Shown piece by piece: positions 37,523 through 64,000 of a DNA stretch of 64,000 nucleotides. The stretch's first letter is position 1. Every line of letters begins with the position of its first letter. The notes under the pieces were generated by a model that searched no databases, was not told the origin of the DNA, and saw only the letters and a program-made list of their open reading frames with translations. The stretch comes from an uncultured cyanobacterium (GTDB lineage Bacteria; Cyanobacteriota; Cyanobacteriia; PCC-9006; JAAUQQ01), in contig OY970368.1 of assembly GCA_963718615.1 (NCBI GenBank), positions 1,920,001 through 1,984,000 of the forward strand, in the 5' to 3' direction. The position numbers were made by a program, and so were the translations under genes.

Positions 37523-40500
37523 TTACAAGCCGTTTCCAATCAAAATAAACGGAGCCCAGTAGTAGGGATTGCTCAGTTGCTCGTCTGTCATGGCGCTGCC
37601 AGTTTTGGTGCTGACGACTTCGATGCCAGCGCGTTTTAGGCCCACGGTGGTGTAGTTGCTGGAGATGAGTGCTTTTTGAGCTTCTTGGAGGGCTTGGGCT
37701 TTGGTCATGCCTTTCTGTAGAGCAGCGTAGAAGGCATCCATTAGCAATTGGGTGCCGCCGTCATCGACTTGCCAGAGGGAGGCTAGGGCGGCTTTGGCCC
37801 CGGCACGTTGGAATTGGTAGCCTAAGCCTAGGATTTCTTCTCCTTCACCGAAGCTGCCCCCAATGCCGGTCTCACAGGCGGAGAGGACAACCAGTTCTAC
37901 GTCGGTCATGGTGAGATCTTTAATTTCTGGGAGAGGAATCGTTTCGCCGCTGCCGAGGGCGAGGAAGGAGTTGTTGGCATCACCGACGACGAATTTGCCA
38001 TGGGTTGCAAGGTGAATGATGCTGAAGTTATTGAGCTCAGGCATAAGATTCTTGCGATCGAAAGTTTGCTCACGCAGGACTTTTGTGGGGAAAAGCTGGG
38101 CGAGCGAATCGACTTCGTTGAGGGTGAAGGGTATGCCGCCGAACCGAAAATCTTGATTTCCGACTTGGATACTGCGAGATTGGTTACCCCAGGCTCCGGC
38201 GAGGATGCGGGGCGCGGTTTGGGGGGCGGTATCCAATTCAGTCAGGGATTGGGCGACGATGTTGTTGGTGCGGTAACGCTCGGCAATCCATTGGTTGCCA
38301 TCGTACAGGGCGGCGAGGGGAATGTAGCGGAGAATACCGTCGGGGGCGTAGATAAGGGTGTCGGGGTTGGCGGCTTCGAGGTCGGCTTCGAGGGGTTTGA
38401 GCAGCCAGGTGTAAAGTTGTTGAGCTAACCGTTTAGTTTCTTTGATATTGTTGGGGGATTGCAGGGCGCTACGGTATTGGGTGACGGTTTCCCGCAGTTT
38501 TTGGGCGTCGAAGTTGTTAACGGTTCGGCGAAGGGGTGGGCTGTTGGGGGTGGTGATGATGAGTTCGAGGCGATCGGGGAGAATGAGGGGGGAGATGAGG
38601 ACGGCTTTGGTGTTGCGCAGGTTGTCGCGCAGGTTGTTGAGGTCTTCGAGGGGGACGATTTGTCGGGAGGTTTTTCGGCTGACTTGGTTGAGCAGGGTTT
38701 GGATGGGGTCGCTGTCGATGAAGGTGTTGAATTGGTGATTAAGGTCTTTTTCGAGGGCGACGAGTTGGGCGAGGCGGTTTTCTTGTTGGGGGCTGAGAGG
38801 TTGTTGGGTTTTAAGGTGTCGGAGTTGGGTGAGTTCTTGGCCGATTTGGATGGCGGTTTTTTGGAGTTCGTTGTAGCGATCGAGAATTTCTTGCTCGGGT
38901 TTGAGGATAATTAATGGATCGTTGGTTGTGCCACGGGTGTTTTTGAGGTAGTCTTCGAGCTCTTGGACTTTGAGGAGATCAAGGACTTGTTGGGCTTCGA
39001 GGATGCGGTCTTGTTGGAGGAGGAGGTCGGCGAGGGTGCGGTAGGTGTCGGAGATGGAGTTGGTGTAGGATTCTTGGATTTCGCGTTCAAGGCGGGTGAG
39101 GTTGCCGCGAATGTTTTCGTAGGTGTTGATGGCTTGTTTGTAGAAGACGATCGCCAGTTCTGGCTGTTGTTGCTGAATTTGGAGGGCTCCGAGGTGGGCG
39201 AGGGTTTGGGCTTGGGTGGGTCGATCGCCGACTTCCTGGGCAAGGGCAAGGGATTGCTGCAAGGTGGTTTGGGCATCAGCGGTTTGGTTGAGTTGGGTTT
39301 GGGCTTGGCCGATGAAGCTTTGAGTGTAGGCTATGTCTCGTTTTGCGGAAAGTTTTTGGTCAACAGCGAGGGCTTGTTGGAAGAAGTCTAGGGCTTTTTC
39401 GGGTTGGGATTGGGCTAGGTAAACTTGACCGATGCCGCTGAGGATGTTGCCTTCGCGGCTGAGGGCTCCGTTGGTTTGGGTGATGGTGAGGGCTTGTTGA
39501 TAGTAGGTGAGGGCATCGGTGGTTTTGCCTTGAGCAATATAAACTTTGGCAATAACAGTCATTAACTCAGCTTCTAGTCCTTGGGCTTTTAATTTCCGAG
39601 CTAATGAGAGGGCTTGTTCATATTTATCTAGAGCGCGCTGAAACTGGCCCAGTTTGAGATAGACGCCAGCAGTTTGTCCTGCAGATTGAATGATTTGTTG
39701 TTGATCTCCGACTGTTTTGAAGAGTTCCTCTGCTTGTTGAACATATTGAAGTGCAGTAGCATAATCTCCTTGCTCAGAATAGAGTACACCCAAGTTGACA
39801 TATACAGTTGCTTGACCCTCACGATCTTGATATTCATTATGAATTGCAAGAGCTTGTCGATAGAAACTTTCGGATTTTGCCTGTTCACCTTGAGCACCAT
39901 AAATTGAACCAATATTGTTCAATATGCTACCTATTGCACCATGAACAGAATTACTCATTCGCTGAATAGCATCAATCGAACCTTTTGTTGGCTTAAGAAA
40001 TGCTTGGAATTCTTCACCACAGTCAAAAATCTCTGGAGGCGTATCAATGCCTAAATCACAGTGTAATAGTCGCAAATTTTCTGGAGTCGGACCTTTTGCA
40101 AGCTGATTGTAAGTCTTTTGAGAAGATGCAAGAATTTCCTGAAAAACAGACAAAGCATTATCATATTGACCTTGTACAGACCAAATTTTTGCAATATTAT
40201 TCAATATGATTTCTTTTGGTTCTTCAGAGTCAATTAACAAAGCTTGCTCATAAACGGACAAGGATTTAGTATAATTACCTTGATTTTCATAGATTGAAGC
40301 AATTCTAATAAGGACGAAAGCCTTGTAAAAATCAGATGTTTTTGCGTGATAGCTTTCCAATTGTTTATTTAGAAAATCTAGTCCCTTTACATATTCTCCA
40401 CGAAACTCATAAATATTTGCTATGCCCTGAAAGAGTACCATTTCAGCAAGATCGACAACTACCTGAAAGTCTTTAGAGTAATTTTGCCCAGAATTTATAT

Positions 40501-41383
40501 TCGACTCTCTTAGTGCTTGAGAAATAGTGAGTGCATTTTTTGCTTTTAAAAGGTATTCGTCGAAGTATTCTGGTTGATTAAGTTCTTCTACCCAAGAGGC
40601 ATAAATCATAAATTCTGAAAAAAGAGCTATGGACTCATTCTCTTTTTCCTCAGATGCTTTCGCCGCTTCTCGCATTTTGGGCATAATAGCTATGGCTTCT
40701 TCATATCGCCCAGATTCTCTCAAAGCATCAACTAAGTCATCATAAGTATTGAATATTGTGTCATAAATATTTTTAGCATCTTCAGGTATCCTAGTAAGGA
40801 CTTGCTCTTGAAGTGATAGAGACTGTCGATAAACTTCGATTGCTTGTGAGTATTGCTGTTGGGCTTGAAATGAGTTGCCTATTATTCGCAGACTTGAAAT
40901 AATCCAAGACCAATTATCAATTTCCTTAAAAACTGTCAGTGCCTGTTGCGCGTGACTCAGAGAGTTGTCAAAATCCCTCTGACCAAAATAAGTGAGAGAA
41001 AGATGCATCAGAAGGGTACCTTCTTCTTCACGATCGCCCAATTCCCTCCTAATCACAAGCGCCTGCTGATAAAAATCCAACGCTTTTTCGCTCTCCTTTA
41101 GCCCAGCATAAACATCACCAATTGCTTGGAGAGAGGTAGCTTGCCCAGAGCGATCGCCCACCCGCCGAAAAATCCCCAAAGCCTGCCCAAACGTTTCTAA
41201 CGCATCCTGCCACTTCCCTTGCAGCCGTAACTCTTCCCCGGCCTGGTTCAACCGAATCGCCTTCTCTCGCTGCCCCTCTGCCGTTTGTGCCAGCGCGATT
41301 GCCTCCGGCAACCCCAACCCCGTCACGCTAAGCCCCAAGCAAGTCAAACCCAACAGTCCTCCAATCCCTAATTGAGCCTTCAT
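37523..41383 (-). CDS. Exported TPR-CHAT (caspase-like) protease #1
   Basis: Signal peptide ending ALAQ, ~40-aa TPR repeats, catalytic HLATHG and LSACETG, C-terminal PYYWAPFILIGNGL. Confidence 0.92.
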   Translation of the reverse strand: MKAQLGIGGLLGLTCLGLSVTGLGLPEAIALAQTAEGQREKAIRLNQAGEELRLQGKWQDALETFGQALGIFRRVGDRSGQATSLQAIGDVYAGLKESEKALDFYQQALVIRRELGDREEEGTLLMHLSLTYFGQRDFDNSLSHAQQALTVFKEIDNWSWIISSLRIIGNSFQAQQQYSQAIEVYRQSLSLQEQVLTRIPEDAKNIYDTIFNTYDDLVDALRESGRYEEAIAIMPKMREAAKASEEKENESIALFSEFMIYASWVEELNQPEYFDEYLLKAKNALTISQALRESNINSGQNYSKDFQVVVDLAEMVLFQGIANIYEFRGEYVKGLDFLNKQLESYHAKTSDFYKAFVLIRIASIYENQGNYTKSLSVYEQALLIDSEEPKEIILNNIAKIWSVQGQYDNALSVFQEILASSQKTYNQLAKGPTPENLRLLHCDLGIDTPPEIFDCGEEFQAFLKPTKGSIDAIQRMSNSVHGAIGSILNNIGSIYGAQGEQAKSESFYRQALAIHNEYQDREGQATVYVNLGVLYSEQGDYATALQYVQQAEELFKTVGDQQQIIQSAGQTAGVYLKLGQFQRALDKYEQALSLARKLKAQGLEAELMTVIAKVYIAQGKTTDALTYYQQALTITQTNGALSREGNILSGIGQVYLAQSQPEKALDFFQQALAVDQKLSAKRDIAYTQSFIGQAQTQLNQTADAQTTLQQSLALAQEVGDRPTQAQTLAHLGALQIQQQQPELAIVFYKQAINTYENIRGNLTRLEREIQESYTNSISDTYRTLADLLLQQDRILEAQQVLDLLKVQELEDYLKNTRGTTNDPLIILKPEQEILDRYNELQKTAIQIGQELTQLRHLKTQQPLSPQQENRLAQLVALEKDLNHQFNTFIDSDPIQTLLNQVSRKTSRQIVPLEDLNNLRDNLRNTKAVLISPLILPDRLELIITTPNSPPLRRTVNNFDAQKLRETVTQYRSALQSPNNIKETKRLAQQLYTWLLKPLEADLEAANPDTLIYAPDGILRYIPLAALYDGNQWIAERYRTNNIVAQSLTELDTAPQTAPRILAGAWGNQSRSIQVGNQDFRFGGIPFTLNEVDSLAQLFPTKVLREQTFDRKNLMPELNNFSIIHLATHGKFVVGDANNSFLALGSGETIPLPEIKDLTMTDVELVVLSACETGIGGSFGEGEEILGLGYQFQRAGAKAALASLWQVDDGGTQLLMDAFYAALQKGMTKAQALQEAQKALISSNYTTVGLKRAGIEVVSTKTGSAMTDEQLSNPYYWAPFILIGNGL
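39017..39507. repeat. ~490-bp near-identical direct repeat, copy 1 (copy 2 at 43731-44221)
   Basis: Matches 43731-44221 at a constant offset of 4714 with few substitutions; encodes the last TPRs and linker of both CHAT proteins. Confidence 0.9.
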
Positions 41384-41418
41384 CGCTATCACCCCTGTTG
41401 ATTATGGTTTACAACATC

Positions 41419-41447
41419 TATACGGTGTAACCCTAGCTAGCTATGCA
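41419..41447 (-). promoter_or_regulatory. Candidate alternative-sigma promoter TGCATA-N17-CGTATA
   Basis: About 35 nt upstream of the TPR-CHAT #1 start; the motif recurs across the island. Confidence 0.65.
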
Positions 41448-41473: not shown

Positions 41474-41971
41474 TTAGGACAAATTCTCCTCATCCACAAG
41501 CTCCAAAACTCGCTGATATAGCTCTGTTGCTATCCAAAAACCAGCTTGATGGACTAACGCATCCAGCAAGGGTTTTACTTTTACAATAAGTCCTCGATTC
41601 TTTGCCTCAACCAATACCCCCAAAATGCCTGTAAAGCGAAGGTTCAATCGAGCTGCGACCAGGCGTCCCCGATGCTCATCCATCAAGAGTTGCTCAGCCT
41701 GAACTTCGACGGCCAAGGCGATCGCTTCTGCTTCTCCCAGATCCAACTCATGACTCAACACGTTAACCAAAGTGCGATCTTTGACGGAATGAGTTGTAAT
41801 CCAGTCAAACGTTTGCACTTCTACTGACCCTGCCACTGGAAAATTTGGGTTGGTTAATTCTCGATAAACAGCCTCAGGAATCAGAATTGTTCCATAGAGA
41901 TCTCGCAAAAGATATAGGTGAGCAATTGCCGCTAAGTTATTAATGGGGGATGTATCACTAACTACAATCAC
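41474..41971 (-). CDS. PIN-domain toxin (DUF3368-like)
   Basis: MIVVSDTSP, IPEAVYREL, LDLGEAEAI, LMDEHRGR, GILGVL. Confidence 0.88.
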   Translation of the reverse strand: MIVVSDTSPINNLAAIAHLYLLRDLYGTILIPEAVYRELTNPNFPVAGSVEVQTFDWITTHSVKDRTLVNVLSHELDLGEAEAIALAVEVQAEQLLMDEHRGRLVAARLNLRFTGILGVLVEAKNRGLIVKVKPLLDALVHQAGFWIATELYQRVLELVDEENLS

Positions 41972-42213
41972 AATCGACCCATCTCTCGCAAATTATTCAA
42001 ATCCTGTTCAAAATCTTCAACTCCGTAGTGAATCGGGATCTGACGACTGGCTAGCAGGTGCTGAAACATCACACGATGCATGCTGGCAAAGCGGCTAGCT
42101 TGGGCCAGCGTCAGCTTGTCTTTTTGAAATAGCATGACTGCGATCTCTTGACGCATTTCACTGGGAGTCATCCGAGCGACAGTCAGAATTTCGCTGGGAA
42201 TTAGAACACTCAT
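41968..42213 (-). CDS. UPF0175-family antitoxin-like protein
   Basis: 81 aa, IAVMLFQKDKLTLAQAS HTH-like segment; 4-nt overlap with the PIN gene. Confidence 0.85.
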   Translation of the reverse strand: MSVLIPSEILTVARMTPSEMRQEIAVMLFQKDKLTLAQASRFASMHRVMFQHLLASRQIPIHYGVEDFEQDLNNLREMGRL

Positions 42214-42263: not shown

Positions 42264-45200
42264 CTACAGCCCATTGCCAATCAAAATAAACGGAGCCCAA
42301 TGGAAAGGGTGTTTGGGATCAGTGCGTCCTGGAGTCGATCGCCCTGAGACAGAGGTTGGAACGATGGAGGCCCGGAACTTAGTCAAGCGAGTATTGCTAT
42401 CTTCGTTGTATAGTAAGCTAAGCTGAGCCTGCCGCAGAGCTTCGGCTTTAGTGAGTTCGCCGGAGGCCAGCAGCTCGTAGAAGCGTTGCATCAGTAGACT
42501 CGTGCTGTCGTCATTGACAGACCAAAGCGAGGCAATGACAGTTTTGGCACGACTGGCTTTGAGGAAATAGGAGCTCAGTCCTGCGATTTCTGTGCCGTCA
42601 TTGGCTTCACCTCCGAGGGCGGTTTGGCAGGCGGAGAGGACAACGAGATGGAGGTTGCTGAGACGCTCATGGAGGGTGTCGATTTCGGGGATTTTGAGAC
42701 GACTACCATCGCCCAGCACAATGTATGACTCCTGGGGTCGGCCCGGTGTAAAGGCTGCGTGGGTGGCGATGTGGAGAATGCGATGGCCAAGGAGGTTTTT
42801 CTCCAGTTGTTGGCGGGTGAAGTCTTGGTTGAGGTAGGTTTGGCCGGGGTAGATGCCGGTGGGGTCGTTGGGGGCTTGGCGGACGATGCGATCGAGTTCG
42901 TCTTCCACCGCAGGGAGAGGATCGAAGCCAGGGACCGCTTGGCTGAGGCCTAGGCCCAGAACATTGGCTTGGTTGACGGTGCCAAGGGTGTCTTCGGCAT
43001 CGGTGAGGCTGGGTGTGATGACGCTGGAGAGGGTATAGCGTTCGATCAGATACTGTTGGCCATTGAACAGGGCGGCCATGGGGATGTAGCGGGTGACGCG
43101 ATCGTTGACGAAGATCAGGTGTTTGGTTTTGCTCTGTTGCAGGGCGGATTCGAGGGGTTTGATCAGCCAGTCGTGGAGTTTTTGGCTGGTGGTTTGGAGG
43201 GCTTGGAGGTCGTTGCCGGATTGGAGTTGTTCGCGGAACTGTTGGACGGTTTTGGCTAATTCTGCTTGGGTGACGGAAACTTCGATGCTGCCCGCAGCGC
43301 CGGGGACGGCGTAGAGGAGCCAGAGTTTTTGGTCGGTGATGAAGGGATAGATTAAAACTGCATCTGGATTGGCTTTGAGCAGCTTTTCGGCTTCGCCGTT
43401 GAGGTTGTCGGGGTTTTGGAAGATGTCGTCGTCGTGGCGATTTTTGCGAACGTCGGTCTTGAAGGTTTCGACGCTTTGGGTGTACTGAGCCCTCAAGGTA
43501 CCCGACTGTGAAAACAATTGGTCTAACTCGCCACAGTTGGTTTGTTTGCATTCGGTGAGTTTTTTGCCAAAGTCAATGAGGTTGCCGTGGGCGTTGATGA
43601 CGGGTTGTTCGGCGTCGTTGTAGAGGAGTTCTGTGCCGGTCCAGGTGGCGCGGGTGTTGGTGAATTCGCGGAGTTCGGCGAGTTTGAGGAGGTCGAGGAC
43701 TTGTTGGGCTTCGCCGATGCGGCCTTGGCTGAGGAGGAGGTCGGCGAGGGTGCGGTAGGTGTCGGAGATGGAGTTGGTGTAGGATTCTTGGATTTCGCGT
43801 TCAAGGCGGGTGAGGTTGCCGCGAATGTTTTCGTAGGTGTTGATGGCTTGTTTGTAGAAGACGATCGCCAGTTCTGGCTGTTGTTGCTGAATTTGGAGGG
43901 CTCCGAGGTGGGCGAGGGTTTGGGCTTGGGTGGGTCGATCGCCGACTTCCTGGGCAAGGGCTAGGGATTGCTGCAAGGTGGTTTGGGCATCAGCGGTTTG
44001 GTTGAGTTGGGTTTGGGCTTGGCCGATGAGGCTTTGGGTGTGAGCCATTTCTCGTTTTGCGGAAAGTTTTTGGTCAACAGCGAGGGCTTGTTGGAAGAAG
44101 TCTAGGGCTTTTTCGGGTTGGGATTGGGCTAGGTAAACCTGGCCGATGCCGCTGAGAATGTTGCCTTCGCGGCTGAAGGCTCCGTTGGTTTGGGTGATGG
44201 TGAGGGCTTGTTGATAGTAGGCGAGGGCTTGCTGATAGTAGGATGGGTCTTTGGTGGTTTTGCCTTGGATGATATAGGCGCTTGCGATGGCAGTGATTAA
44301 CTCAGCTTCTAGTCCTTGCGCTTTTAATTTTCGAGCTAATGCGAGGGCTTGGTCATATTTATCTAGAGCGCGCTGAAACTGGCCTAGTTTGAGATAGACG
44401 GTGGCAGTTCCTCTTGCAGATTGGATAATTTCTTGTTGATCTCCAACTGTATCGAAGAGTTCTTCTGCTTGTTGACCATATTGAAGTGCAGTGGAATAAT
44501 CTCCTTGTTCAAAATAGCGTGCACTTAGATTGAGGTGTACAACTGCTTGGCCCGCAAGATCTTGATATTCATAATAAATTTTGAGGGCTTGTTGAGAGAA
44601 GCTTTCTGCTTTTACATACTCACCTTGAGCGCTGTAAATTGAACCAATATTATTTAAGTAAATTCCTATCGTTCGCTTAGCATAGTTTTGACCTTCTACA
44701 AGGAGCTTCTGAAGAAAGATTTTCTGAACTGTCTGATCTTCAGAATCTCCACAAAAAACTGAATAATCAGAAAGGTATTTTGAATATTCACTCTTCATTT
44801 CTTGACACCATAGCTTTATATTGCTTGAAATTAATCCTTTTTCAAAAAAATCGTACTCTTGTTGTTTATATTTAATTAATTCATGAAAGATAGACAAGGC
44901 TTTTTCATATTGGCCTTGCTTGTCGTAAATAAAGGCTATATTATTCTGTATGACCTGTGCGACTTCAAAGTGATTCGACTGAAGAGCGACTGATAGAGCT
45001 TGCTCGTAAATCAATAGAGATTGATGATAATCACCCTGATCCGAGTAGATTGCCCCGATCTGAGCAGAAGCCAGGAGTTTTTTTCCAAGAGATATCTTAT
45101 GCTGATACGTACTTAATGCATTGTTTACTAGACGCAATGATCTTTCATATTCTCCACGAAAACTGTAAATACTGGCAATTTCAAGTAATGTAGAAAACTC

Positions 45201-46451
45201 ATTTTCGACGTTTTCATCAGCCATCTTAGAGTCTATTTTGCGTAAACTTTGGGCAATATCTAGCATCTTTTGTGATTTTTCTAAAGATTGATCGTACTGT
45301 CCAAGTTGCCTCAGCCTAGTTGCCCATCCAAAGTAAATTGAGATTTCTAGATCAAGAACTTCATTCTCATCATTTTTGTTTCCAGAAGCTTTTGCTGCTT
45401 CTAGTATTTGAGGCAAAATTTCGACTGAATTTTCGTATCTATCGAGTAAGTTGTACACATTTATTAGGTGATAGCACGCAATAAAGATTGATCTATTTAC
45501 GAGGCGATTATAAATTAATTGTTCTTCTGTTGAGAGGCTGAAGAGAAATTTTCTATAAAATTCTAAGGCTTTTTGATCAGCTTCAATCGCTAACTCATAT
45601 TTTTGCTTTTGTTGATAGATTTCACCTAGTGCACTCCAAGCTGAAGCAACCTTCATGGGTCTATTAAGCTCTTGAAAGATTGCGAGAGCTTGCTGATAGT
45701 AATCAATCGCTTTGTCGTATTGCTCTAGTGCAGAGTAAGCCTCAGCCATACTGTCAAAGGAATTAGCAACCCCCATAGGTTGATTGAGTTCTTGAAAGAT
45801 TGTGAGAGCTTGCTGATAATAATCAATAGATTTGTCATATTGCTCTAGTGCAGAGTAAGCCTCAGCTCCACTAAAGAAAGAATTAGCAGCTTCAATAGGT
45901 TGATTGAGTTCTTGAAAAATCTCAAGAGCTTGCTGAAAGTAAGTAATAGCTTTGTCATATTGCCCTAACGCAACGTAAGTCTGAGCGATCTGATAGGAAA
46001 CATTAGCTTCCCATGAGCGCAATGGGGGCAAATTCAATTCTTGCGTAATCACAAGCCCCTGCTGATAAAACTCCAACGCTTGCCCATGCTCCCCCAAGTG
46101 AGAATAAACCCTACCTATTCCAAAAAGAGTCCCAGCTTCACCAGCCCGATTAGCTTTGCCAAGCTCCGAATCATCGCCCCCACCCCGCCGAAAAATCCCC
46201 AAAGCCCGCTCAAACCTCTCCCTCGCCTGCCGAAACACCTCCCCCGCCTCCTCAACCTTCCCCTGCCCCTGCAACTGCTCCCCCTGCTCCCGCAACTGCC
46301 CCCCCTCCTCAAGCAACCGCTTCCCAGCCTCCAGCCCCTCCGCCGCCGTCTGCGCCAGCACCCCCCTCTCCGGCACCCCCAACCCCGCCGTCACCCCCAA
46401 CCCCAAACAAGTCAACCCCAGCAACGCCCCAAATCCAGATTGCAACCTCAT
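42264..46451 (-). CDS. Exported TPR-CHAT protease #2
   Basis: Signal peptide ending VLAQ, TPR array, HIATHA and LSACQTA dyad, C-terminal HPFHWAPFILIGNGL. Confidence 0.92.
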   Translation of the reverse strand: MRLQSGFGALLGLTCLGLGVTAGLGVPERGVLAQTAAEGLEAGKRLLEEGGQLREQGEQLQGQGKVEEAGEVFRQARERFERALGIFRRGGGDDSELGKANRAGEAGTLFGIGRVYSHLGEHGQALEFYQQGLVITQELNLPPLRSWEANVSYQIAQTYVALGQYDKAITYFQQALEIFQELNQPIEAANSFFSGAEAYSALEQYDKSIDYYQQALTIFQELNQPMGVANSFDSMAEAYSALEQYDKAIDYYQQALAIFQELNRPMKVASAWSALGEIYQQKQKYELAIEADQKALEFYRKFLFSLSTEEQLIYNRLVNRSIFIACYHLINVYNLLDRYENSVEILPQILEAAKASGNKNDENEVLDLEISIYFGWATRLRQLGQYDQSLEKSQKMLDIAQSLRKIDSKMADENVENEFSTLLEIASIYSFRGEYERSLRLVNNALSTYQHKISLGKKLLASAQIGAIYSDQGDYHQSLLIYEQALSVALQSNHFEVAQVIQNNIAFIYDKQGQYEKALSIFHELIKYKQQEYDFFEKGLISSNIKLWCQEMKSEYSKYLSDYSVFCGDSEDQTVQKIFLQKLLVEGQNYAKRTIGIYLNNIGSIYSAQGEYVKAESFSQQALKIYYEYQDLAGQAVVHLNLSARYFEQGDYSTALQYGQQAEELFDTVGDQQEIIQSARGTATVYLKLGQFQRALDKYDQALALARKLKAQGLEAELITAIASAYIIQGKTTKDPSYYQQALAYYQQALTITQTNGAFSREGNILSGIGQVYLAQSQPEKALDFFQQALAVDQKLSAKREMAHTQSLIGQAQTQLNQTADAQTTLQQSLALAQEVGDRPTQAQTLAHLGALQIQQQQPELAIVFYKQAINTYENIRGNLTRLEREIQESYTNSISDTYRTLADLLLSQGRIGEAQQVLDLLKLAELREFTNTRATWTGTELLYNDAEQPVINAHGNLIDFGKKLTECKQTNCGELDQLFSQSGTLRAQYTQSVETFKTDVRKNRHDDDIFQNPDNLNGEAEKLLKANPDAVLIYPFITDQKLWLLYAVPGAAGSIEVSVTQAELAKTVQQFREQLQSGNDLQALQTTSQKLHDWLIKPLESALQQSKTKHLIFVNDRVTRYIPMAALFNGQQYLIERYTLSSVITPSLTDAEDTLGTVNQANVLGLGLSQAVPGFDPLPAVEDELDRIVRQAPNDPTGIYPGQTYLNQDFTRQQLEKNLLGHRILHIATHAAFTPGRPQESYIVLGDGSRLKIPEIDTLHERLSNLHLVVLSACQTALGGEANDGTEIAGLSSYFLKASRAKTVIASLWSVNDDSTSLLMQRFYELLASGELTKAEALRQAQLSLLYNEDSNTRLTKFRASIVPTSVSGRSTPGRTDPKHPFHWAPFILIGNGL
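43731..44221. repeat. ~490-bp near-identical direct repeat, copy 2
   Basis: Matches 39017-39507. Confidence 0.9.
45661..46020. repeat. Three 120-bp tandem units (recent TPR expansion)
   Basis: Units starting 45661, 45781 and 45901 share TTGAAA.AT...GAGAGCTTGCTGA...TTGTC.TATTGC...; each encodes a QY.KAI.YYQQAL.IFQELN.P-like repeat. Confidence 0.85.
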
Positions 46452-46484
46452 GTCGCTTCAGCCCCTATCGTGGTGTACAACATT

Positions 46485-46513
46485 TATACGAATTAGCCCC
46501 AGCCCGTTATGCA
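46485..46513 (-). promoter_or_regulatory. Candidate promoter TGCATA-N17-CGTATA
   Basis: Upstream of TPR-CHAT #2. Both boxes are identical to 41419-41447 while the spacer has diverged. Confidence 0.65.
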
Positions 46514-46699
46514 ATCCGGAAGCTTGATTTAGATTAACAAATCGCCTCCTTCAACCCTCTCCAATTCCCTCGATTTGCTCGTGATATTTTTGCTACCTAG
46601 ATAAAGCCTTGAAAATACTGAATTTAGCCTAAAAATCGATTTTTATCGTCCTTCGAAAAACTCAAAACGCACATCAAAATCCTCGTATTTTGTCGTTTT

Positions 46700-46728
46700 T
46701 GCATACCTAAATTGCTGATGAATAGATA
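46700..46728 (+). promoter_or_regulatory. Candidate promoter TGCATA-N17-TAGATA
   Basis: Upstream of the sigma-like gene; divergent partner of 46485-46513. Confidence 0.55.
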
Positions 46729-46858
46729 TATTTCTGTAATCGTATAAAGCTCATATTGTATAGAGATTATAGAGACTCCATTTCCCCCCTTCAAACCCTG
46801 TAGAATCGCTCTCAACCCGCATTCCTCAACCCTCATCCCCACCCTATCCCCGTTCGCC

Positions 46859-52909: not shown

Positions 52910-52966
52910 GAACCCAATTAAATGGCTACGATCTCATGCGATCTAATTTTAACGGAGTAGACAACC

Positions 52967-55900: not shown

Positions 55901-56062
55901 CAAGCTCAACGAGCCTTGATCACTGGCAAGTTTGAGGCTGGCCATGATGAGGAACGCGCTTCCGTGGTTGGGGTGGGCGATCGTTCCAGCCAATCAAAGG
56001 AGAACAACCTCAGCCACCCCTACTACTGGGCACCGTTTATCTTGATTGGTAATGGGCTTTAG
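52967..56062 (+). CDS. Exported TPR-CHAT protease #3
   Basis: Hydrophobic N-terminus, 40-aa TPRs, HLATHG and LSACQTA, C-terminal HPYYWAPFILIGNGL; RBS GGAG. Confidence 0.92.
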   Translation: MTQGTSMKIVFLGSIAAIIVLFLAIGLEGNDGVAWAIKPAIESKILAQQSQKNQADELLQLGIEQANRNQLREALQSWKQALELYRQISDRQGEARLLGNLGHVYLSFDEYEDAIYLYYQSLHIWREIRDSQAEAKVLNHLGLAYRGLGEYEGAIRSYQKSLKISRESRDRQSEIMTLGDLRASYDDLDQYERTTNLRQQPLTANRKLIDLFGEGVSSGDLSPVYNNLEEYKQALELHQKSLVIANEIRDRPLQARALRHLGSIHLRLGEYEQAINLHQQSLEIARETRDRQLEARLLGHLGNVYLSLGEYERVINLHQQSLKIARETHDRKLEARALIGFGNAYFYTCQAQNDSSQCKLAFDLYQQSLTIAQEIHDRQGQAAAWNNLANSSLHLGQNKPAIDFLQQSLEIAREINDRQIEADSLHSLGLAYANQKDHTTALSHFQQALMLFKTIGAREGEGLTLSDLGRTFNDLNRPQLAIIFYKASVNVREAIRGDIQGLSLEEQQSYTNTIADSYRALADLLLQQNRIPEAQRVLDLLKLQELDDYFQGIQRSADSQTGVGSSKAEQDILNLYINHILAAEELASLTKRPPKDLSNPERQRLEVLQAEQGQISRDFSQFLEREDVTTALKALNAHSEAREALEPRHFKRLKDDLAKLPQRSALLYPLILRDRLELVLVLPNLDPVHVSVSVSAEELNQLIVAFSQDLSRPNSNPLPPAQQLYRLLIKPLEPALSGAQVTHLFYAPDGALRYIPLAALHDGNGPNNGQWLTERFTLSNITAASLTDFASNPDRNLRLFAGACAQCSFSFEINGRPYHFRDLPATQTEVETLAQAFREKTVLLNREFSPAQLKLNLGYYNLLHLATHGAFVEGDPRESFIVFGDGSRASLREIRETWDLSRQELVVLSACQTAVGGSQLGNGVEILGLGYQMQASGAKATLSSLWLVSDTGTQRLMNQFYAALLQGDRPLTKPQALQQAQRALITGKFEAGHDEERASVVGVGDRSSQSKENNLSHPYYWAPFILIGNGL

Positions 56063-56102
56063 GACGTGAATTTCAAGAACGTCAGTCTCATCGTAGATTG
56101 AC

Positions 56103-57068
56103 TTAAAACCACGGTATCCTGAACTTGTTTCGGACTCGCCCAGCTCCTGACTGCGCTCGCGACTTCAATTCCTCATCTAGATTCTTAATTACATCCCGAT
56201 CCTCGGGCTCTGCCTTTGGCACGTAGGGTTCTTTGAGAGGTTCTGCTACAGCATTTTCTTTTTGTAGTTGCAGATCAACTCCCTTCTTCTGGGCCTCACT
56301 CTCAAAAGTACCAATCGGAATTCCATAGTTAAACCCTGACTTAAACAAGGCAGATATCTCTTCTGCTGATTCATGTTCGAGATTCAACCTTTGTGATAGG
56401 CCGATTGGATCCTCAGCTCCACCGAGTCCATGAATGCCGATCACGCGTCCCGAAGAGTCGAAGATGCCACTACCACTCATGCCTGCTCGTGTCACATTGT
56501 CGTATGAAACCTCGTAGCCGCCTATAGGAGACTCCAGAAATCCGGATATATTACCGCCGGTGAACTGTCGAATTATTTGCGGATCAGTCGTTTTCATCTC
56601 AGCCATTGCAATAATCGCGTCAGGTTTTGGCCATCCAGAGATAAAGATAGACTGCCCTTCTTTCAGCCTTGCCACACTAATTTTGGCAGTAGGGTATTTT
56701 TCTTTTGTAGTAAATTTAGCAATCGCAAGATCGACTGCTGACAAAAACTTGATCTCCTCATAACTCACTTCATAGGTTTTTCGATCAGGAGTCCTCAATT
56801 GATAATCCTGTCGATGACGCAGCACATGCTCATTGCTTAAGACGAAATACTGATCTCCGTCTTTAGCAATAATGACACCTGAGCCTTGATCTTCTTTACG
56901 ATCTTTTCCCCGGATCAGAACGGTAACCTCGCGGGCAATATCATTGACTTCTTCACCGCTGAGAGCTTGTGCTCTTTGAGGAAGGGTGACAATCAGCGTA
57001 CTGGCGATCGCAACTCCAAAGACGGTCGTGGAAGCATACTTGAATAAACTCATACCTATTGACCTCAA
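56103..57068 (-). CDS. Exported trypsin-like serine protease
   Basis: Signal peptide ending AQA; triad motifs LSNEHV, DLAI, GMSGSG; VIGIHG. Confidence 0.88.
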   Translation of the reverse strand: MRSIGMSLFKYASTTVFGVAIASTLIVTLPQRAQALSGEEVNDIAREVTVLIRGKDRKEDQGSGVIIAKDGDQYFVLSNEHVLRHRQDYQLRTPDRKTYEVSYEEIKFLSAVDLAIAKFTTKEKYPTAKISVARLKEGQSIFISGWPKPDAIIAMAEMKTTDPQIIRQFTGGNISGFLESPIGGYEVSYDNVTRAGMSGSGIFDSSGRVIGIHGLGGAEDPIGLSQRLNLEHESAEEISALFKSGFNYGIPIGTFESEAQKKGVDLQLQKENAVAEPLKEPYVPKAEPEDRDVIKNLDEELKSRAQSGAGRVRNKFRIPWF

Positions 57069-57201
57069 GCAATTAACAGATTTTTTCTTGGACTAAAGCA
57101 CTAAAAACGTTGGGTAGAGCACTCGCTTGCACAAGAGTTTACACGATTTATAGTAAAAGCTCCTGAGTCGAGAACACCGTGCTCATTCACCAATGTCTAC
57201 C

Positions 57202-57229
57202 TATAAGGTTGAACCTCAAAGTTTATGCA
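57202..57229 (-). promoter_or_regulatory. Candidate promoter TGCATA-N16-CTTATA
   Basis: In the intergenic region upstream of the trypsin gene, on the coding strand. Confidence 0.5.
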
Positions 57230-57292
57230 GTCAGATGCCTGCTTCAAAAAACAAAGGAACATTGACAATGCGTAGCTGGTTCGCTTCATCCT

Positions 57293-59527
57293 TCAGGGCT
57301 CACCAACCTCAAGTATCACTGAAAACACAGCAAGTGAATCAGTACTGATTGTCTTTCGAGTATCAGCACGTTGTACTCCGGCCCGAGTACTCACATCACT
57401 TACAATGTGGTCGACTAGATCGACCACCGTATCTTCACTTTCACCTGAAGAACGAGTTGTTTCTTCATTAAAACTAAGGTGACTTCCTCTTTGTAGGCCT
57501 CGACCCCTTGCAATTGTTTTCATCGCTTGTAATGCTTCTTTGAGTGGTTTTGTACTTGTAATCACCAATAATTCAGTGAAGCCAGCAGGGCCAACTAATC
57601 TCAGCTCAACAGGGACTTTACCTCCTTTCTTCTCGACCAGTGCAGCGGCTTCCGGCGCAGCCCAATCGACTGGATGTAGGAGATCCAGAGATCCATCATC
57701 AGAAATGACCATGACCCCCATAAACAGGTTTTCAATTGGGTCGTTATTTTTAACTGTTACATCAATTAAAGTCCCAGGCTTATAGGGCTTGGAAAAATCA
57801 ATTTGTCGACTGATCACATCACCCGAGCCTGCGGAACGACTCCCCAGGGTTCCCCTAGGACCATCTCCCTCCTTCACAGCAATGTCTACATCAACCTTTA
57901 CATTGTGAGACGCATCATTGAGCAACTCCTTCAAAATTTTCCCCGCTAATAGCATCTTCAGCCGAGGCCGTAACCGCCCAATCGTCGCCTCGATCGGCTC
58001 ATTGGGACCACCCAAGAACGATCGCGTCACAGGCGTTGCACTCTGACTCAATAGGCCCACACTGCCTGGGGGAACAGAAATGTCAATATTACGTTGCTGG
58101 GCTTGCTTGACCGCTTCTGGTGTTAGACGACCCAATAAAATATCGACGGGTTGAGATTGATCAACAATGACAGGCTCAATCCGGTTGATTTTGCGCAGGG
58201 CCTGCTGCGCTGTAGCTAAATTCCTACCCAAAGAAGGGTCTAACCCAACCTTGAGACTTAGGTTAGCAGGAATAATGCGCAGCTTTTCTCGCATGAGGCT
58301 ACCTTCACCCACCGTTTGACTCGGAGCCTCCACCAACCGACCATAGCCCTTCAGACCCAGTCGGCTAGTTTGTTCAACTTCCCCTAAAGGATTGCCATTT
58401 TCATCAATTAAGTCAAACTTTGCTCCCTTCTCAAAGGATTTGAGATTTCCAGAAGAGACTCCTCCCAGCCAAAACTCAACATTTTGCCCATCGACTTTCT
58501 GAAGAACGGCATCTGCTGAAGGCCGTTGGTCAGAAAGAAAATAGATAGGTTGTAACTCAAAGGCAGGATTTGCGGTAAAGGAGAGAGGATTCTGGGTTAG
58601 TCCAGAGGACTCCGCTACATCGCGGGTAATGAGTGCTAGCCGGTTGAAACTTTGTTGTAGCGATTCGCTGCTGGGTAACTGCCAAAGATAGCGTGTTAGC
58701 AGATACGTGAATGCTCCAGCATAGAAATCTCCAAAGGGCATATCAGCCGCAAGTTGATTTGCTTCCGCTGATCCTAGGGCCATCCCTCTTGCAATCCCCT
58801 TGACCCGTTCTGCTTGGAACTGTTCCGGCGAAAGATTGAGTTTGGTTAACCACTGTTCTTGAAAATTGAGTTCCTGTTCACTGGGTTTGGCCTCTGCTGC
58901 CCCAGATCTCGGTTCTATATTGCGAAACACTAAGTTTCCCCTGGTTCCCCCCCCTGAGTGACAGCTATCGAGCACCATCGTGAAGAAATCAGTATTTACG
59001 GCTCGACTGAGTAAGAAAAGTGTCTTACCCATGATGTCGTTGGCAATATTTCCCGATGCAAGACGAGTATCTGAGGGTACCAACGTTCCGTTGAGACCAC
59101 CCTCTGCTGTTGGGATAGGATTGGGATCAACAACGCGAGAACCGTGACCAGAGTAGTGGAAGACCACAATATCACCGGGTGCTGCTTGTTTAATTAGGTG
59201 CTCGTCAAAAGCCGTTAAAATATTTTCGCGGGTTGGCTTTTGTTGCGCTTCATCGCTGAGGATTAGAATGTCCTTAGGATTAAAGCCATAGCGATGCACC
59301 AAAAGTTGGCGCTGCATTTCCACATCCGTTAGGCAGCCTTGGAGATTGCGGATAGAGTCTTTGTACTGGTTTACACCAACTAACAAAGCCAGCTTTCGCC
59401 CCGTAGGCTGAGCCAAAACGCGACCATAGTGTTCGCTTTGTTGAAAGAAGTTTGCTTCATGTAGGCCCAATGCTGCCAGGGTGGAACCAGCAATCTGGAG
59501 AAAGTGGCGACGCTTTATCGAGGTCAT
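57293..59527 (-). CDS. Caspase-family (C14) protease with twin-arginine signal and C-terminal beta-rich domain
   Basis: KLALLVGVNQY, LQGCLTDV, HYSGHG, LDSCHSG. Start MTSIKRRHFLQ has RBS AGGAG, so ATG at 59527 is preferred over 59632. Confidence 0.9.
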   Translation of the reverse strand: MTSIKRRHFLQIAGSTLAALGLHEANFFQQSEHYGRVLAQPTGRKLALLVGVNQYKDSIRNLQGCLTDVEMQRQLLVHRYGFNPKDILILSDEAQQKPTRENILTAFDEHLIKQAAPGDIVVFHYSGHGSRVVDPNPIPTAEGGLNGTLVPSDTRLASGNIANDIMGKTLFLLSRAVNTDFFTMVLDSCHSGGGTRGNLVFRNIEPRSGAAEAKPSEQELNFQEQWLTKLNLSPEQFQAERVKGIARGMALGSAEANQLAADMPFGDFYAGAFTYLLTRYLWQLPSSESLQQSFNRLALITRDVAESSGLTQNPLSFTANPAFELQPIYFLSDQRPSADAVLQKVDGQNVEFWLGGVSSGNLKSFEKGAKFDLIDENGNPLGEVEQTSRLGLKGYGRLVEAPSQTVGEGSLMREKLRIIPANLSLKVGLDPSLGRNLATAQQALRKINRIEPVIVDQSQPVDILLGRLTPEAVKQAQQRNIDISVPPGSVGLLSQSATPVTRSFLGGPNEPIEATIGRLRPRLKMLLAGKILKELLNDASHNVKVDVDIAVKEGDGPRGTLGSRSAGSGDVISRQIDFSKPYKPGTLIDVTVKNNDPIENLFMGVMVISDDGSLDLLHPVDWAAPEAAALVEKKGGKVPVELRLVGPAGFTELLVITSTKPLKEALQAMKTIARGRGLQRGSHLSFNEETTRSSGESEDTVVDLVDHIVSDVSTRAGVQRADTRKTISTDSLAVFSVILEVGEP

Positions 59528-59625
59528 GGGGGAATGCTCCTGAGAATGACAAATGACATTTGCAAATAACGTTTGGTAGTGCGCCTTTCGCTCGTTATGG
59601 TTAGTCTCTTTTACAAGCAAAAGCA

Positions 59626-59654
59626 TATTCATCTGGACGTTCTAGAGATATGCA
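59626..59654 (-). promoter_or_regulatory. Candidate promoter TGCATA-N17-TGAATA
   Basis: About 100 nt upstream of the caspase ATG. Confidence 0.55.
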
Positions 59655-59731: not shown

Positions 59732-59760
59732 TGCATAACAGGACATGCCGTCTCCGTACG
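59732..59760 (+). promoter_or_regulatory. Candidate promoter TGCATA-N17-CGTACG
   Basis: 43 nt upstream of the cyclase ATG; divergent partner of 59626-59654. Confidence 0.6.
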
Positions 59761-59803: not shown

Positions 59804-60697
59804 ATGGCAGCTATCTATAACGATCAACAGAAGGGAGTGGGACGTCCCCTGGTAATTAGGTATCAGAAGTTACCTCACCAATCCTTCAATCGCCATTTTT
59901 GGTGCAATCTAGGCACGATTGCCCTCTCCATCTCCCTGCCTCAGCTCATTCCCCAAGGATTTCTAGGGTTGCCTGTTGCGATACAAAACTTCAGCAACCT
60001 GCTTCAGACGGTTCATCCCATGGTGTGGATGCTATCAGTGGTTCTGCTCGTTGCCCTGCCCCTTAATATTGCCCATCGACTACGCTGCCATCCTCTGACT
60101 TTGCCCGCTGCGATCGCCCCAGACCTCCAACCCATCTCCCATCCCATCGCCTATTCCTACGACCAAGTCACCGTCATGTTTGCCGATTTAGTTGGGTTTA
60201 CCCCGCTGTCGGCTCAAATGGCCCCAGACCAATTGTTTGAACTGCTCAACTTGATTTTTTCGACCTTTGATCAACTGGTCGATCACCATCAGCTTGAAAC
60301 CATCAAAACCGTTGGCGATGCCTATATGGTGGCGGGAGGGCTGCCGGGAACCCCGGAACAGCATGCAGATGCCATGGTGGCGTTAGCGTTGGATATGCAA
60401 GAGGCGATCGCCCAAATTCGTCAAATCACCGGTAAAAATCTCTATTTGCGGATTGGTATCCATACAGGGCCTGTGGTTGCTGGCGTCATAGGGTTGAAAA
60501 AGTTGAGCTATGACCTCTGGGGCGATACGGTGAATATTGCGAGCCGCATGGAGTCGCAGGGAATTGTTGGAGGGATTCAAATGAGTGAGCATACTTATCA
60601 GTTATTGCAAGGGTCTTATGGGGTGCGATCTCTAGGCTGTAAGGAAATTAAGGGGAAGGGAGAAATGCAAACCTATACCGTTAATCCCTATGTCTGA
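59804..60697 (+). CDS. Class III adenylate cyclase with short hydrophobic N-terminus
   Basis: FADLVGFT, IKTVGDAYM, RIGIHTGPV, YDLWGDTVNIASRMES; Lys/Asp specificity residues point to ATP. Confidence 0.9.
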   Translation: MAAIYNDQQKGVGRPLVIRYQKLPHQSFNRHFWCNLGTIALSISLPQLIPQGFLGLPVAIQNFSNLLQTVHPMVWMLSVVLLVALPLNIAHRLRCHPLTLPAAIAPDLQPISHPIAYSYDQVTVMFADLVGFTPLSAQMAPDQLFELLNLIFSTFDQLVDHHQLETIKTVGDAYMVAGGLPGTPEQHADAMVALALDMQEAIAQIRQITGKNLYLRIGIHTGPVVAGVIGLKKLSYDLWGDTVNIASRMESQGIVGGIQMSEHTYQLLQGSYGVRSLGCKEIKGKGEMQTYTVNPYV

Positions 60698-62359: not shown

Positions 62360-62480
62360 TTGACGTTACCCCACCGTCGCCCTACCGTTCTGTACCTTGC
62401 GTAAGTAGGTAAGGGACTATGGGGGATGGTAGGATTGTGGGGGATGGTAGAATAGAGAAGAGGTGTTGAGGGGTAAAGCT

Positions 62481-63476
62481 ATGACGTTGTATCTCCAAGA
62501 TAAGTATATTAACCTCCTCACTGACTTTGGCTTTAAGAGAGTCTTTGGTACAGAGCCAAACAAGCACCTGTTGATTGACTTTCTGAATACGCTATTGCCA
62601 GCCAATCGCCAGATTCAGGATGTCACGTTTAAGAACAATGAGAATGTTGGTAATACGTCTGTAGACCGTAAGGCAATTTTTGATATTTACTGTCAAGGTG
62701 AGAATGGTGAGCGTTTTATCGTTGAACTCCAAAAGGCGAAACAAAACTTTTTTAAGGATAGAAGCGTTTTTTATGCAACTTTTCCAATTCAGGAGCAAGC
62801 GCTGAAGGGAGACTGGAATTTCAAACTAGCTCCGGTCTATGCGGTTGGGATCCTAGATTTCATTTTTGATGATCACAAGCATTCAACGACTCTGGTTCAC
62901 ACGGTTGATCTGAAAGATCAAAATTGCCAGGTGTTCTATGACAAACTAAAGTTTATTTATATTGAATTGCCTAAATTCAAGAAGGCAGCTAATGAGTTGG
63001 AGAGCCATAGTGATAAGTGGTTGTTTGTTTTGAAGAATCTGGCTGAGTTGAGCGATCGCCCGCAATCTCTACAAGAGGATGTGTTCAATGAACTGTTTAA
63101 CGTAGCAGAAATTGCGAATTTTTCAGCCGTTGAGCTAGATAATTATCAAGCGAGTTTAAAATACTACCGTGATCTCAATAATGTAGTGGATACCTCTCGG
63201 GAAGAAGGTCGAGCGGAAGGTCGAGCGGAAGGTCGAGCAGAAGGTCGGGCAGAAGGTCGAGCGGAAGGTCGGGTTGAAGGTAAGCAATCGCTGATTTTCC
63301 AGCAACTGGCTTTGAAGTTGGGTGAGATTCCTGAAGACACGGCTTCCCAGCTAGCTCAGCTTTCTTCCGAGGCGTTGAATGAGTTAGGGATTGCGGTGTT
63401 TGGATTTGAGGCGATCGCAGATCTCCAAGAATGGCTGAGATCAAGACCTTCTACAACCCATTCCCAATCAGAATAA
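62481..63476 (+). CDS. Rpn-family PD-(D/E)XK nuclease/putative transposase with DUF4351-like C-terminus
   Basis: TDFGFKRVFG, FDIYC, FIVELQ, FIYIELPKF, (EGRA)n linker, L..W tail. Confidence 0.88.
   Translation: MTLYLQDKYINLLTDFGFKRVFGTEPNKHLLIDFLNTLLPANRQIQDVTFKNNENVGNTSVDRKAIFDIYCQGENGERFIVELQKAKQNFFKDRSVFYATFPIQEQALKGDWNFKLAPVYAVGILDFIFDDHKHSTTLVHTVDLKDQNCQVFYDKLKFIYIELPKFKKAANELESHSDKWLFVLKNLAELSDRPQSLQEDVFNELFNVAEIANFSAVELDNYQASLKYYRDLNNVVDTSREEGRAEGRAEGRAEGRAEGRAEGRVEGKQSLIFQQLALKLGEIPEDTASQLAQLSSEALNELGIAVFGFEAIADLQEWLRSRPSTTHSQSE
63204..63281 (+). repeat. 12-bp tandem repeat GAAGGTCGRGCR (about 6 copies) encoding (EGRA)n
   Basis: Read directly from the sequence. Confidence 0.85.
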
Positions 63477-64000
63477 AGGCGGACCAGTAGTAGGGATGGC
63501 TAAGGTCGATGCTGGGGTTGAGGGGTTGGTTTTTGGCGATGACCTCGATTCCGGCACGGAAGTGGGCTAGGTCGGTGAGTTGTACGTTGCCTTCGATGAA
63601 GTCGCGGCTGACCTGTTGCAGGGCGGCCACTTTTGTGGTGCCGGGTTTTCCGAGATAGTTGTAGAAGCGTTGCATGTAGGCTCCGGTGGCGGGGTCGTTG
63701 ACTTGCCAGAGGGAGGCGATCACGGCTTTTGCGCCGCGTTGGAGGAAGGCGTTGCTGATGCCTGCGATTTCGATGCCGTCTTGGTCGCGACGGTCTCCGA
63801 GGGCGGTTTCGCAGGCGGAGAGGACGACTAGATGCACATTGGCGAGATCATCAAGGGTGTCGATTTCGGCGACGGGGAAGTGGCTGCCATCGCCGAGGAC
63901 GAGGAAGGATTTGCCGATATCGCCGGGTTCAAATTTGCCGTGGGTGGCGAGGTGGAGGATGTCGTGGCCGCTGAGCTGGGTTTTGATGCGGGTGGCGGTG
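63451..64000 (-). CDS. C-terminal part of CHAT protease #4 (runs off the window)
   Basis: Frame stays open to the window edge: ILHLATHGKF, LSACETA, ASLWQVND, HPYYWSAFILIGNGL. Confidence 0.9.
   Translation of the reverse strand, partial: TATRIKTQLSGHDILHLATHGKFEPGDIGKSFLVLGDGSHFPVAEIDTLDDLANVHLVVLSACETALGDRRDQDGIEIAGISNAFLQRGAKAVIASLWQVNDPATGAYMQRFYNYLGKPGTTKVAALQQVSRDFIEGNVQLTDLAHFRAGIEVIAKNQPLNPSIDLSHPYYWSAFILIGNGL

Follow-up and report, generated by a model that had tools for sequence, protein, structure and literature searches.

EACC2-caspase proteins combine a constant EACC2 domain and a caspase with a variable C-terminus, which can be a transmembrane (TM)-flanked CHASE2 domain, a STAND nucleoside triphosphatase (NTPase), or another type of module (Kaur, Iyer, Burroughs, Aravind, eLife 2021, PMC8195603). 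The passages of that paper that deal with these proteins describe neighbouring genes for a sigma factor of the extracytoplasmic function (ECF) type and a DUF1822 protein, propose a sequence of sensing, autopeptidase activation, and a final sigma-mediated transcription step, and file the proteins with apoptosis-like systems. Here, we analyze a locus of this type within 64,000 nt of DNA from an uncultured cyanobacterium (assembly GCA_963718615.1, contig OY970368.1, positions 1,920,001 to 1,984,000 of the forward strand), and this whole stretch is referred to as the window. Five co-oriented genes on the plus strand, lettered D to H and located at window positions 46859–56062 (Table 1), encode a sigma-like protein (D), a DUF1822 protein (E), a protein with a caspase-like CHAT domain and a CHASE2 domain (F), a divergent DUF928 protein that is predicted to be exported (G), and a TPR-CHAT protein (H). 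The core formed by D, E, F, and G, in some cases with H, is a real conserved cyanobacterial module, the binding of D to E is predicted, and the organization of the module is best read as a sigma factor gated by a protease.

As judged from its sequence, D-E-F-G-H is one copy of the EACC2-caspase/sigma/DUF1822 system of Kaur et al., in its CHASE2 form. It has the N-terminal module and caspase-like domain, the CHASE2 C-terminus, and adjacent sigma-like and DUF1822 genes that the passages on that system describe, and the variety of C-termini attached to the F module (nSTAND1, WD40, Peripla_BP_6, and CHASE2) agrees with the same description. The core is not new, having been predicted computationally in 2021 by Kaur et al., and the pathway idea that a sequence-only reading of this DNA had put forward was already in that proposal (PMC8195603). 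Beyond those passages lie the DUF928 protein, the exported TPR-CHAT partner, the prediction of D:E binding, the multi-copy paralogous cassettes, and a promoter element. In contrast to the neighbourhood described there, this locus has extra proteases nearby.

Sigma factors released by proteases are also known from type III CRISPR systems, for which the Csx29(TPR-CHAT)-Csx30-CASP-sigma, CalpL-CalpT-CalpS, and SAVED-CHAT/PCaspase systems are examples, and the PCaspase of a type III-B system cuts many proteins (bioRxiv 10.1101/2023.06.23.546230). As far as these systems are covered in the parts of that source used here, the likeness lies in a caspase-family or other protease that cuts a partner, with the result that a dedicated sigma factor is set free or altered, which is proposed for the present locus. 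Unlike those switches, scans of the window found no cas genes, array, or SAVED/cyclic oligoadenylate sensor, and it is a periplasmic CHASE2 domain that would receive the input; Pfam, furthermore, relates E to no named anti-sigma factor. The sequence-only reading had reported the lack of cas genes and arrays, which held: no CRISPR-like array is present in the whole window, and no cas or SAVED domain was found among the 28 window open reading frames (ORFs) scanned with Pfam.

A related logic is that of RseA, DegS, and RseP, in which regulated proteolysis of a membrane anti-sigma factor frees an ECF sigma factor in response to an envelope signal. The proposed route shares the order of envelope signal, proteolysis, and release of a dedicated sigma factor. 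It differs in that the protease would be the receptor's own cytoplasmic caspase-like domain, and in that the presumed anti-sigma factor, E, has no convincing membrane segment. The closest match for F itself is a metacaspase-CHASE2 protein of Trichodesmium erythraeum, with an N-terminal caspase-like domain, one TM segment, CHASE2, and three further TM segments, for which the protease is predicted to be cytoplasmic (Asplund-Samuelsson et al. 2012, PMC3501461). F shares this domain order and predicted topology; the Trichodesmium protein is treated alone in the relevant part of that paper, without sigma, DUF1822, or DUF928 partners. One adjacency of CHASE2 and DUF928 is recorded in a survey of WD40 proteins, and no experimental study of the module was found in the full-text literature on the CHAT domain, sigma factors, cyanobacteria, and CHASE2.

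Conservation of the core module

A profile of the D family was used to search 401 sampled genomes of the phylum and gave matches in 65 of them. Around strong D matches, 40 loci of 20 kb were collected (39 from other genomes and one around a second D copy in this genome, with three of the 40 stretches on short contigs), and their ORFs were searched with the window proteins. These genomes are mutually related and are not independent trials, so that the counts from the 40 loci are descriptive. E is present in 38 loci and follows D immediately in 37, and the N-terminal module of F is present in 30. The CHASE2 form of F occurs in at least 25 (Pfam found CHASE2 in two more), and in 18 of these 25 it is followed directly by G. 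A canonical CHAT gene is found in 13 of the 25 loci with F-CHASE2, compared with 2 of the 15 others. For the trypsin-like protease, the caspase, and the nucleotide cyclase to the right of the core (I, J, and K), a search of the 40 loci at E ≤ 1e-3 gave no homologue, and they are neighbours in this genome only. The co-occurrence that the sequence-only reading had named as a check is in this way upheld for the core genes and fails for I, J, and K, and its seven-protease cascade cannot be regarded as a conserved system.

The module is abundant in cyanobacteria and present in several copies per genome. In this genome there are seven DUF1822 loci, and a D-like gene lies upstream in four of the six outside the core, in one case split into two ORFs. 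In four of the six an F-type gene comes next; CHASE2 is present in three of the four, and in two of these three a DUF928 gene follows F directly. A second D-subfamily gene of this genome (within G000:C1:5648070-5668065) is found behind a CHAT-CHASE2 gene of the F type and a gene for DUF928, with no DUF1822 gene nearby. In one other genome the genes run E-F-G-D, and from these two arrangements the module does not have a fixed gene order. DUF1822 was found in 272 of the 401 sampled genomes. Weak, single Pfam matches to DUF1822 (E 1e-4 to 1e-17) were also seen in many genomes of ∼2 Mb from another family of the same phylum (f34).

In F, Pfam recognizes CHAT at residues 138–353 (34.1 bits, cut-off 24) and CHASE2 at residues 419–723 (47.6 bits). 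The catalytic dyad, H256 and C300, is invariant in all 38 aligned sequences of the N-terminal module. The protease is likely to be cytoplasmic and CHASE2 external, because the CHAT domain precedes the first hydrophobic segment, which is itself preceded by the stretch RRWGPTRRE; the position of CHAT ahead of the first TM segment had been noted from the sequence and is confirmed. With residues 1–395 of F as the query, 36 ORFs were recovered from the related loci and from those of this genome. Among seven homologues of the module, the C-termini recognized by Pfam were nSTAND1 in four (one with WD40), Peripla_BP_6 in one, and CHASE2 in one, with nothing recognized in the last. The likening of the first ∼130 residues of F to EACC2 is by description, as neither Pfam nor NCBIfam holds a profile of that name.

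The sigma-like protein and its predicted partner

The D family comprises 147 cyanobacterial homologues, and those among the best 10 that carry a name from their source are all called 'hypothetical protein'. D has no Pfam match, including none to Sigma70_r2, and the only direct match in NCBIfam is to TIGR02937, at 18.7 bits and under the cut-off of 42.9. Several lines of evidence nevertheless point towards a sigma factor. The AlphaFold2 model of D (mean predicted local distance difference test score, pLDDT, 87.9) was used in a Foldseek search, and the best matches were sigma factors within RNA polymerase holoenzymes; these matches are weak (best E 0.033, template modelling score ∼0.2–0.3). The D-family profile matched the sigma-70 factors of this genome (hhalign probability 44.5%, E 2.3e-4), with the aligned parts ordered from region 2 to region 4. 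Three paralogues of D that lie upstream of other DUF1822 genes pass the Pfam Sigma70_r4 cut-off of 24.1 with 29.3, 24.4, and 34.3 bits, and the D family aligns with a Sigma70_r4-positive paralogue over 240 columns that include the helix-turn-helix (hhalign 94.9%, E 4.3e-8). Sigma70_r2 is matched weakly in the paralogues (E 0.09 and 0.47), and a search of PDB sequences with the D profile gave nothing significant (best E 0.087; a SigF fragment at E 0.15). On the basis of the Foldseek matches, the alignment with the paralogue, and the passing of Sigma70_r4 by that paralogue, D is accepted as sigma-like, with a putative region 2.

A group of ORFs of ∼395 aa that are matched weakly by the D profile was initially read as housekeeping sigma factors. 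This assignment was rejected; the best DUF1822 matches come immediately downstream of these ORFs, which for this reason are regarded as D-like paralogues.

The binding of D to E is the best-supported step of the proposed mechanism, and it rests on structure prediction. The predicted D:E complex has an interaction prediction score from aligned errors (ipSAE) of 0.66 (0.71, 0.66, and 0.65 in separate runs), and the best of three controls scored 0.00. The runs have at least 37% of contacts in common, and the pLDDT of the partner is at least 67. In calibration, 58 of 80 solved complexes attained the mark, as did 2 of 110 mismatched pairs; these counts apply only roughly to D:E because custom alignments were used for it. 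A complex of the sigma-like and DUF1822 proteins had been suggested as a check on the sequence-only reading, and the prediction came out in its favour. On the side of E, the interface includes W49, the sole invariant column of its family. On the side of D, it includes the invariant residues N182 and C231 and the nearly invariant A179, H215, and R219, and it also takes in residues adjoining the invariant W178, Y218, and R222.

In the model, D is contacted only by the N-terminal half of E, which is divided from the C-terminal half by a low-complexity linker rich in Pro and Gln at residues ∼200–225. The C-terminal half may thus be free for another partner. E has no convincing membrane segment, and a weak hydrophobic stretch at residues 134–152 holds two Glu residues. 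A role for E similar to that of an anti-sigma factor is suggested by the adjacency of the two genes together with the predicted complex.

DUF928 proteins, flanking proteases, and a candidate promoter

The ATG of G overlaps the stop codon of F by 4 nt, which suggests translational coupling of the two genes. Pfam gives no match for G itself, even with the threshold relaxed to E 10, and a word-based homologue search returned G alone. DUF928 (PF06051) is, however, matched at E ≤ 0.01 by 8 of 19 orthologues of G (best 1.2e-6), and the G-family profile aligns with nine DUF928 domains of this genome over 143 columns (hhalign 96.4%, E 1.3e-9). From these profile comparisons, G is read as a divergent DUF928 subfamily. 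Its AlphaFold2 model has a signal peptide, a disordered stretch at residues 28–63, an Ig-like sandwich at 67–162, and a helical bundle at 165–238. Three residues named as invariant are R61, which lies in the disordered stretch ahead of the folded domain, C67, and C238. A Foldseek search with this model gave only generic Ig-like matches, of which the best was the C-terminal domain of MtxA (E 5e-4). The labels of D and G thus derive from indirect support by profiles, paralogues, and models, and with this qualification the co-oriented core of sigma-like, DUF1822, CHAT-TM-CHASE2, DUF928, and TPR-CHAT genes that had been described from sequence is confirmed.

This genome contains 50 CHAT matches, 16 genes recognized by Pfam as DUF928, seven DUF1822 loci, and 19 CHASE2 matches. 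When G is included, there are 17 DUF928 or DUF928-like genes, and 11 of them have a CHASE2 domain within 3 kb, 11 have a CHAT domain within 3 kb, and 14 have either. A canonical, high-scoring CHAT domain lies within the same distance of eight of the 17. Conversely, 10 of the 19 CHASE2 genes have DUF928 within 3 kb, and several of the CHASE2 partners of DUF928 genes are without any CHAT domain. Among the 27 CHAT proteins with the strongest matches, at least 16 have a hydrophobic N-terminus. DUF928 genomically links exported CHAT proteases and CHASE2 receptors, which fits, and does not prove, the proposed outer arm of the pathway. Two same-strand triads of canonical CHAT, DUF928, and CHASE2 (587 aa) genes, at G000:C1:4915888-4918824 and 2065391-2068289, have no sigma or DUF1822 gene, and they suggest a unit that may be connected to other outputs.

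A more specific role for DUF928 can be envisaged, in which it would be a Spaetzle-like pro-ligand of CHASE2. An exported TPR-CHAT protease would cut it at the invariant Arg ('GGSR', in the disordered stretch before the Ig-like domain), and the processed form would engage CHASE2. Cyanobacteria would then have many parallel periplasmic channels leading from protease to receptor (in this genome, 17 genes are DUF928-like, CHASE2 is matched 19 times, and strong CHAT matches number 27), and D-E-F-G-H would be the one with a caspase-released sigma factor as its output. We regard this scheme as improbable.

Proteases are also found on both sides of the core. All seven in the window (A, C, F, H, I, J, and O) retain catalytic motifs, as had been claimed: CHAT His and Cys motifs are seen in A, C, H, O, and F (His 868 and Cys 911 in H), YSGHG and DSCHSG in J, and His, Asp, and GMSGSG in I. 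The predicted export signals are likewise borne out, with hydrophobic, signal-like N-termini in A, C, G, H (residues 9–27), and I, and a twin-arginine translocation (Tat)-type motif, RRHFLQ, in J. Six of the 50 CHAT matches of the genome fall inside 32 kb, where ∼0.26 would be expected, and this clustering exceeds chance. A, C, and O are paralogues, and the clustering may stem from tandem duplication.

The hexamer TGCATA had been named in the sequence-only reading as the basis of a reporter for the pathway. By itself, it shows no enrichment in the window, with 17 copies against 28.2 expected. Four of the window sites share a second box 16–17 nt downstream, and the exact form, TGCATA-N17-CGTATA, precedes A and C, with relaxed forms upstream of I and K (Table 1). 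The exact element occurs three times in the 6.1-Mb genome, with all three sites in this island, compared with ∼0.3 expected from 1277 TGCATA sites. The third is at the 5′ end of O, 4.1 kb past the end of the window, and apart from the two boxes and a spacer GGG it has little in common with the sites of A and C. In the 40 related loci, which total 750,139 bases, the shortened form TGCATA-N17-CGTA was found once, and the exact element was found at five sites in four of 20 relatives. The exact element is considered a local candidate promoter and not an established mark of a regulon. A separate scan of positions 46300–57300 for sigma-70-type promoters and terminators gave nothing above shuffled sequence.

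Proposed mechanism, rival explanations, and remaining genes of the window

In the mechanism that we favour, D, a very divergent factor of the sigma-70 type, would be held by its predicted partner E. F would be the receptor, with CHASE2 outside the cytoplasmic membrane and the caspase-like CHAT inside, and the exported G, as its gene association suggests, may act with CHASE2 as co-sensor or ligand. A signal would switch on the protease of F, which would cut E or otherwise free D, by analogy with Csx29-Csx30-sigma and CalpL-CalpT-CalpS. D would then redirect transcription, possibly at the TGCATA-N17-CGTATA sites before the neighbouring TPR-CHAT genes, a step for which the support is weak. The cleavage of DUF1822 by F and the processing of DUF928 by TPR-CHAT proteases are steps that we purely infer. 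Protease-gated sigma logic is the best reading of the module, and the whole chain, taken together, falls a little short of an even chance of being correct.

Several observations weigh against this reading. D misses every curated sigma model at the Pfam and NCBIfam cut-offs, and its profile reaches the sigma-70 factors of its own genome only at the hhalign probability of 44.5%. E has no known anti-sigma domain; DUF1822 is its sole Pfam family and it has no NCBIfam match. Ten of the 40 loci have D, nine of them with E, and lack the F module (three of the ten are on short contigs), and some of these continue into unrelated genes such as those for pentapeptide, RlaP, AraC, and TonB receptor proteins; D and E can therefore work without F. 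The promoter element gives further grounds for caution. The sequences upstream of A and of C are paralogues of each other and so count as one event, none of the 40 related loci contains the exact element, and no exact copy precedes the operon of D itself. Four scanned sites in relatives precede a VanZ-like gene, a DUF1400 hydrolase gene, a NADAR gene, and an unassigned ORF.

The occurrence of D-E pairs without F is also what would be expected if D were an ordinary helix-turn-helix regulator or a degenerate, non-functional relic of a sigma factor, with E a co-factor and not an inhibitor, and with F signalling otherwise, for example by self-cleavage that frees its own N-terminal domain. The failure of D at the sigma cut-offs, the detection of region 2 in its paralogues only at E ∼0.1, and its length of 461 aa, far longer than that of ECF sigma factors, agree with such a view. 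It is difficult to reconcile with the structural matches, which are best to sigma chains, with the ordered alignment from region 2 to region 4, and with the three paralogues that pass Sigma70_r4, and we consider it improbable. Somewhat more weight, within what is still unlikely, is given to a system of conflict or programmed death as Kaur et al. understand it, in which the caspase of F would be the effector itself, activating itself and cutting many proteins to cause growth arrest or suicide on invasion, with the sigma response secondary. The sensor probably faces the periplasm, although it is in the cytoplasm that phage nucleic acid appears; D, E, F, and G are matched by no PADLOC model; and several paralogous copies of the module per genome are more like parallel signalling channels. 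Set against this, the N-terminal caspase module of F also occurs joined to STAND NTPases that carry WD40 repeats, an arrangement typical of conflict systems; the relevant passages of Kaur et al. group it with apoptosis-like systems; the type III-B PCaspase, as described in the source cited above, offers a precedent for cutting many proteins; and a DUF3368 (PDC-S70-like) gene with an 81-aa ORF upstream lies inside the island.

The mechanism proposed in the sequence-only reading was broader, with all seven proteases acting in one envelope-spanning cascade. The variable, exported TPR-CHATs, together with the trypsin and the Tat-caspase, would process DUF928, which would signal through CHASE2 to the inner CHAT, and the cleavage of DUF1822 would free the sigma factor and induce the island. 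The clustering of CHAT genes, the proximity of canonical CHAT domains to eight of the 17 DUF928 or DUF928-like genes, the enrichment of canonical CHAT genes at F-CHASE2 loci, the invariant R61 as a possible processing site, and the restriction of the exact element to this island, with relaxed forms before I and K, are all consistent with it. However, I, J, and K are without homologues in the 40 loci, the paralogy of A, C, and O offers duplication as a source of the clustering, the element is not conserved elsewhere, and the cleavage steps are inferred only. Furthermore, G was not detected in 7 of the 25 F-CHASE2 loci, one of which stops 21 bases after F. As a whole, this cascade is the least probable of the explanations considered here.

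If the favoured mechanism, protease-gated release of a sigma factor, is true, it would provide a route from envelope to transcription that takes no input from CRISPR and in which a sigma factor is released by a caspase-family protease and not by a site-1/site-2 protease pair. This analysis adds to the earlier prediction the D:E interface, the assignment of a divergent DUF928 protein, the genome-wide association of DUF928, CHASE2, and CHAT, and the island-specific bipartite element. The predicted D:E interface on invariant residues, the catalytic C300, the invariant Arg of the DUF928 partner, and the candidate target promoter provide handles for experiments, and the association of DUF928 with CHASE2 and CHAT may give a role to three large families that are currently without one.

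Table 1. Positions of the core genes, their neighbours, and the candidate promoter elements in the window.
Feature	Position	Strand	Description
A	37523-41392	-	Predicted exported TPR-CHAT paralogue; Pfam CHAT E 2.7e-62; putative link to core
TGCATA-N17-CGTATA	41419-41447	-	Upstream of A
DUF3368 (PIN-like) gene	41474-42213	-	Between A and C
C	42264-46451	-	Predicted exported TPR-CHAT paralogue in divergent orientation from D; CHAT E 2.6e-60; putative link to core
TGCATA-N17-CGTATA	46485-46513	-	Upstream of C
D	46859-48244	+	Divergent sigma-70-like protein, 461 aa
E	48475-49686	+	DUF1822 protein, 403 aa; Pfam DUF1822 E 1e-26
F	49737-52166	+	N-terminal module with caspase/CHAT, TM, CHASE2, C-terminal TMs; 809 aa
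G	52163-52909	+	Predicted exported divergent DUF928 protein, 248 aa
H	52967-56062	+	TPR-CHAT with hydrophobic N-terminus, 1031 aa; Pfam CHAT E 3.4e-64, and TPR
I	56103-57068	-	Predicted exported trypsin-like serine protease; Pfam Trypsin_2
TGCATA-N16-CTTATA (relaxed)	57202-57229	-	Upstream of I
J	57293-59632	-	Peptidase_C14 caspase (Pfam); RRHFLQ Tat-type motif
TGCATA-N17-CGTACG (relaxed)	59732-59760	+	Upstream of K
K	59804-60697	+	Class III nucleotide cyclase; Guanylate_cyc E 6.4e-62
L	right of core		RTX-repeat protein
N	62463-63476	+	PD-(D/E)XK_2 transposase-like gene with DUF4351
O	63451-64000	-	3′ (C-terminal) part of long TPR-CHAT gene running past the window end

To the left of 37.5 kb, the genes of the window are metabolic and include those for a PEP-utilising enzyme, an acetyl-CoA ligase/GNAT protein, hydrogenase, HypF, and pyruvate:ferredoxin oxidoreductase. 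A block on the minus strand (18427–30762) encodes pyruvate:ferredoxin oxidoreductase, HypF, the large subunit of a NiFe-hydrogenase, and a HoxF-like diaphorase subunit, and is unrelated to the module. At the other end, the open frame of O continues beyond the window to a length of ∼1550 aa (1552), and one more TPR-CHAT gene and a TPR gene follow.

The DUF3368 gene between A and C matches the PADLOC candidate system PDC-S70 (E 2.2e-66), and the 81-aa ORF upstream overlaps it by 4 nt. The two are likely to be a toxin-antitoxin pair inserted between A and C. K has a hydrophobic N-terminal segment and weak matches to PADLOC PycC models (best 3.3e-15). Transposase-like PD-(D/E)XK_2 genes with DUF4351, similar to N, also adjoin D-E cassettes at L075:10357-11454 and L037:15573-16813, and genes of this type beside D-E cassettes were found in this genome and in one other genome.

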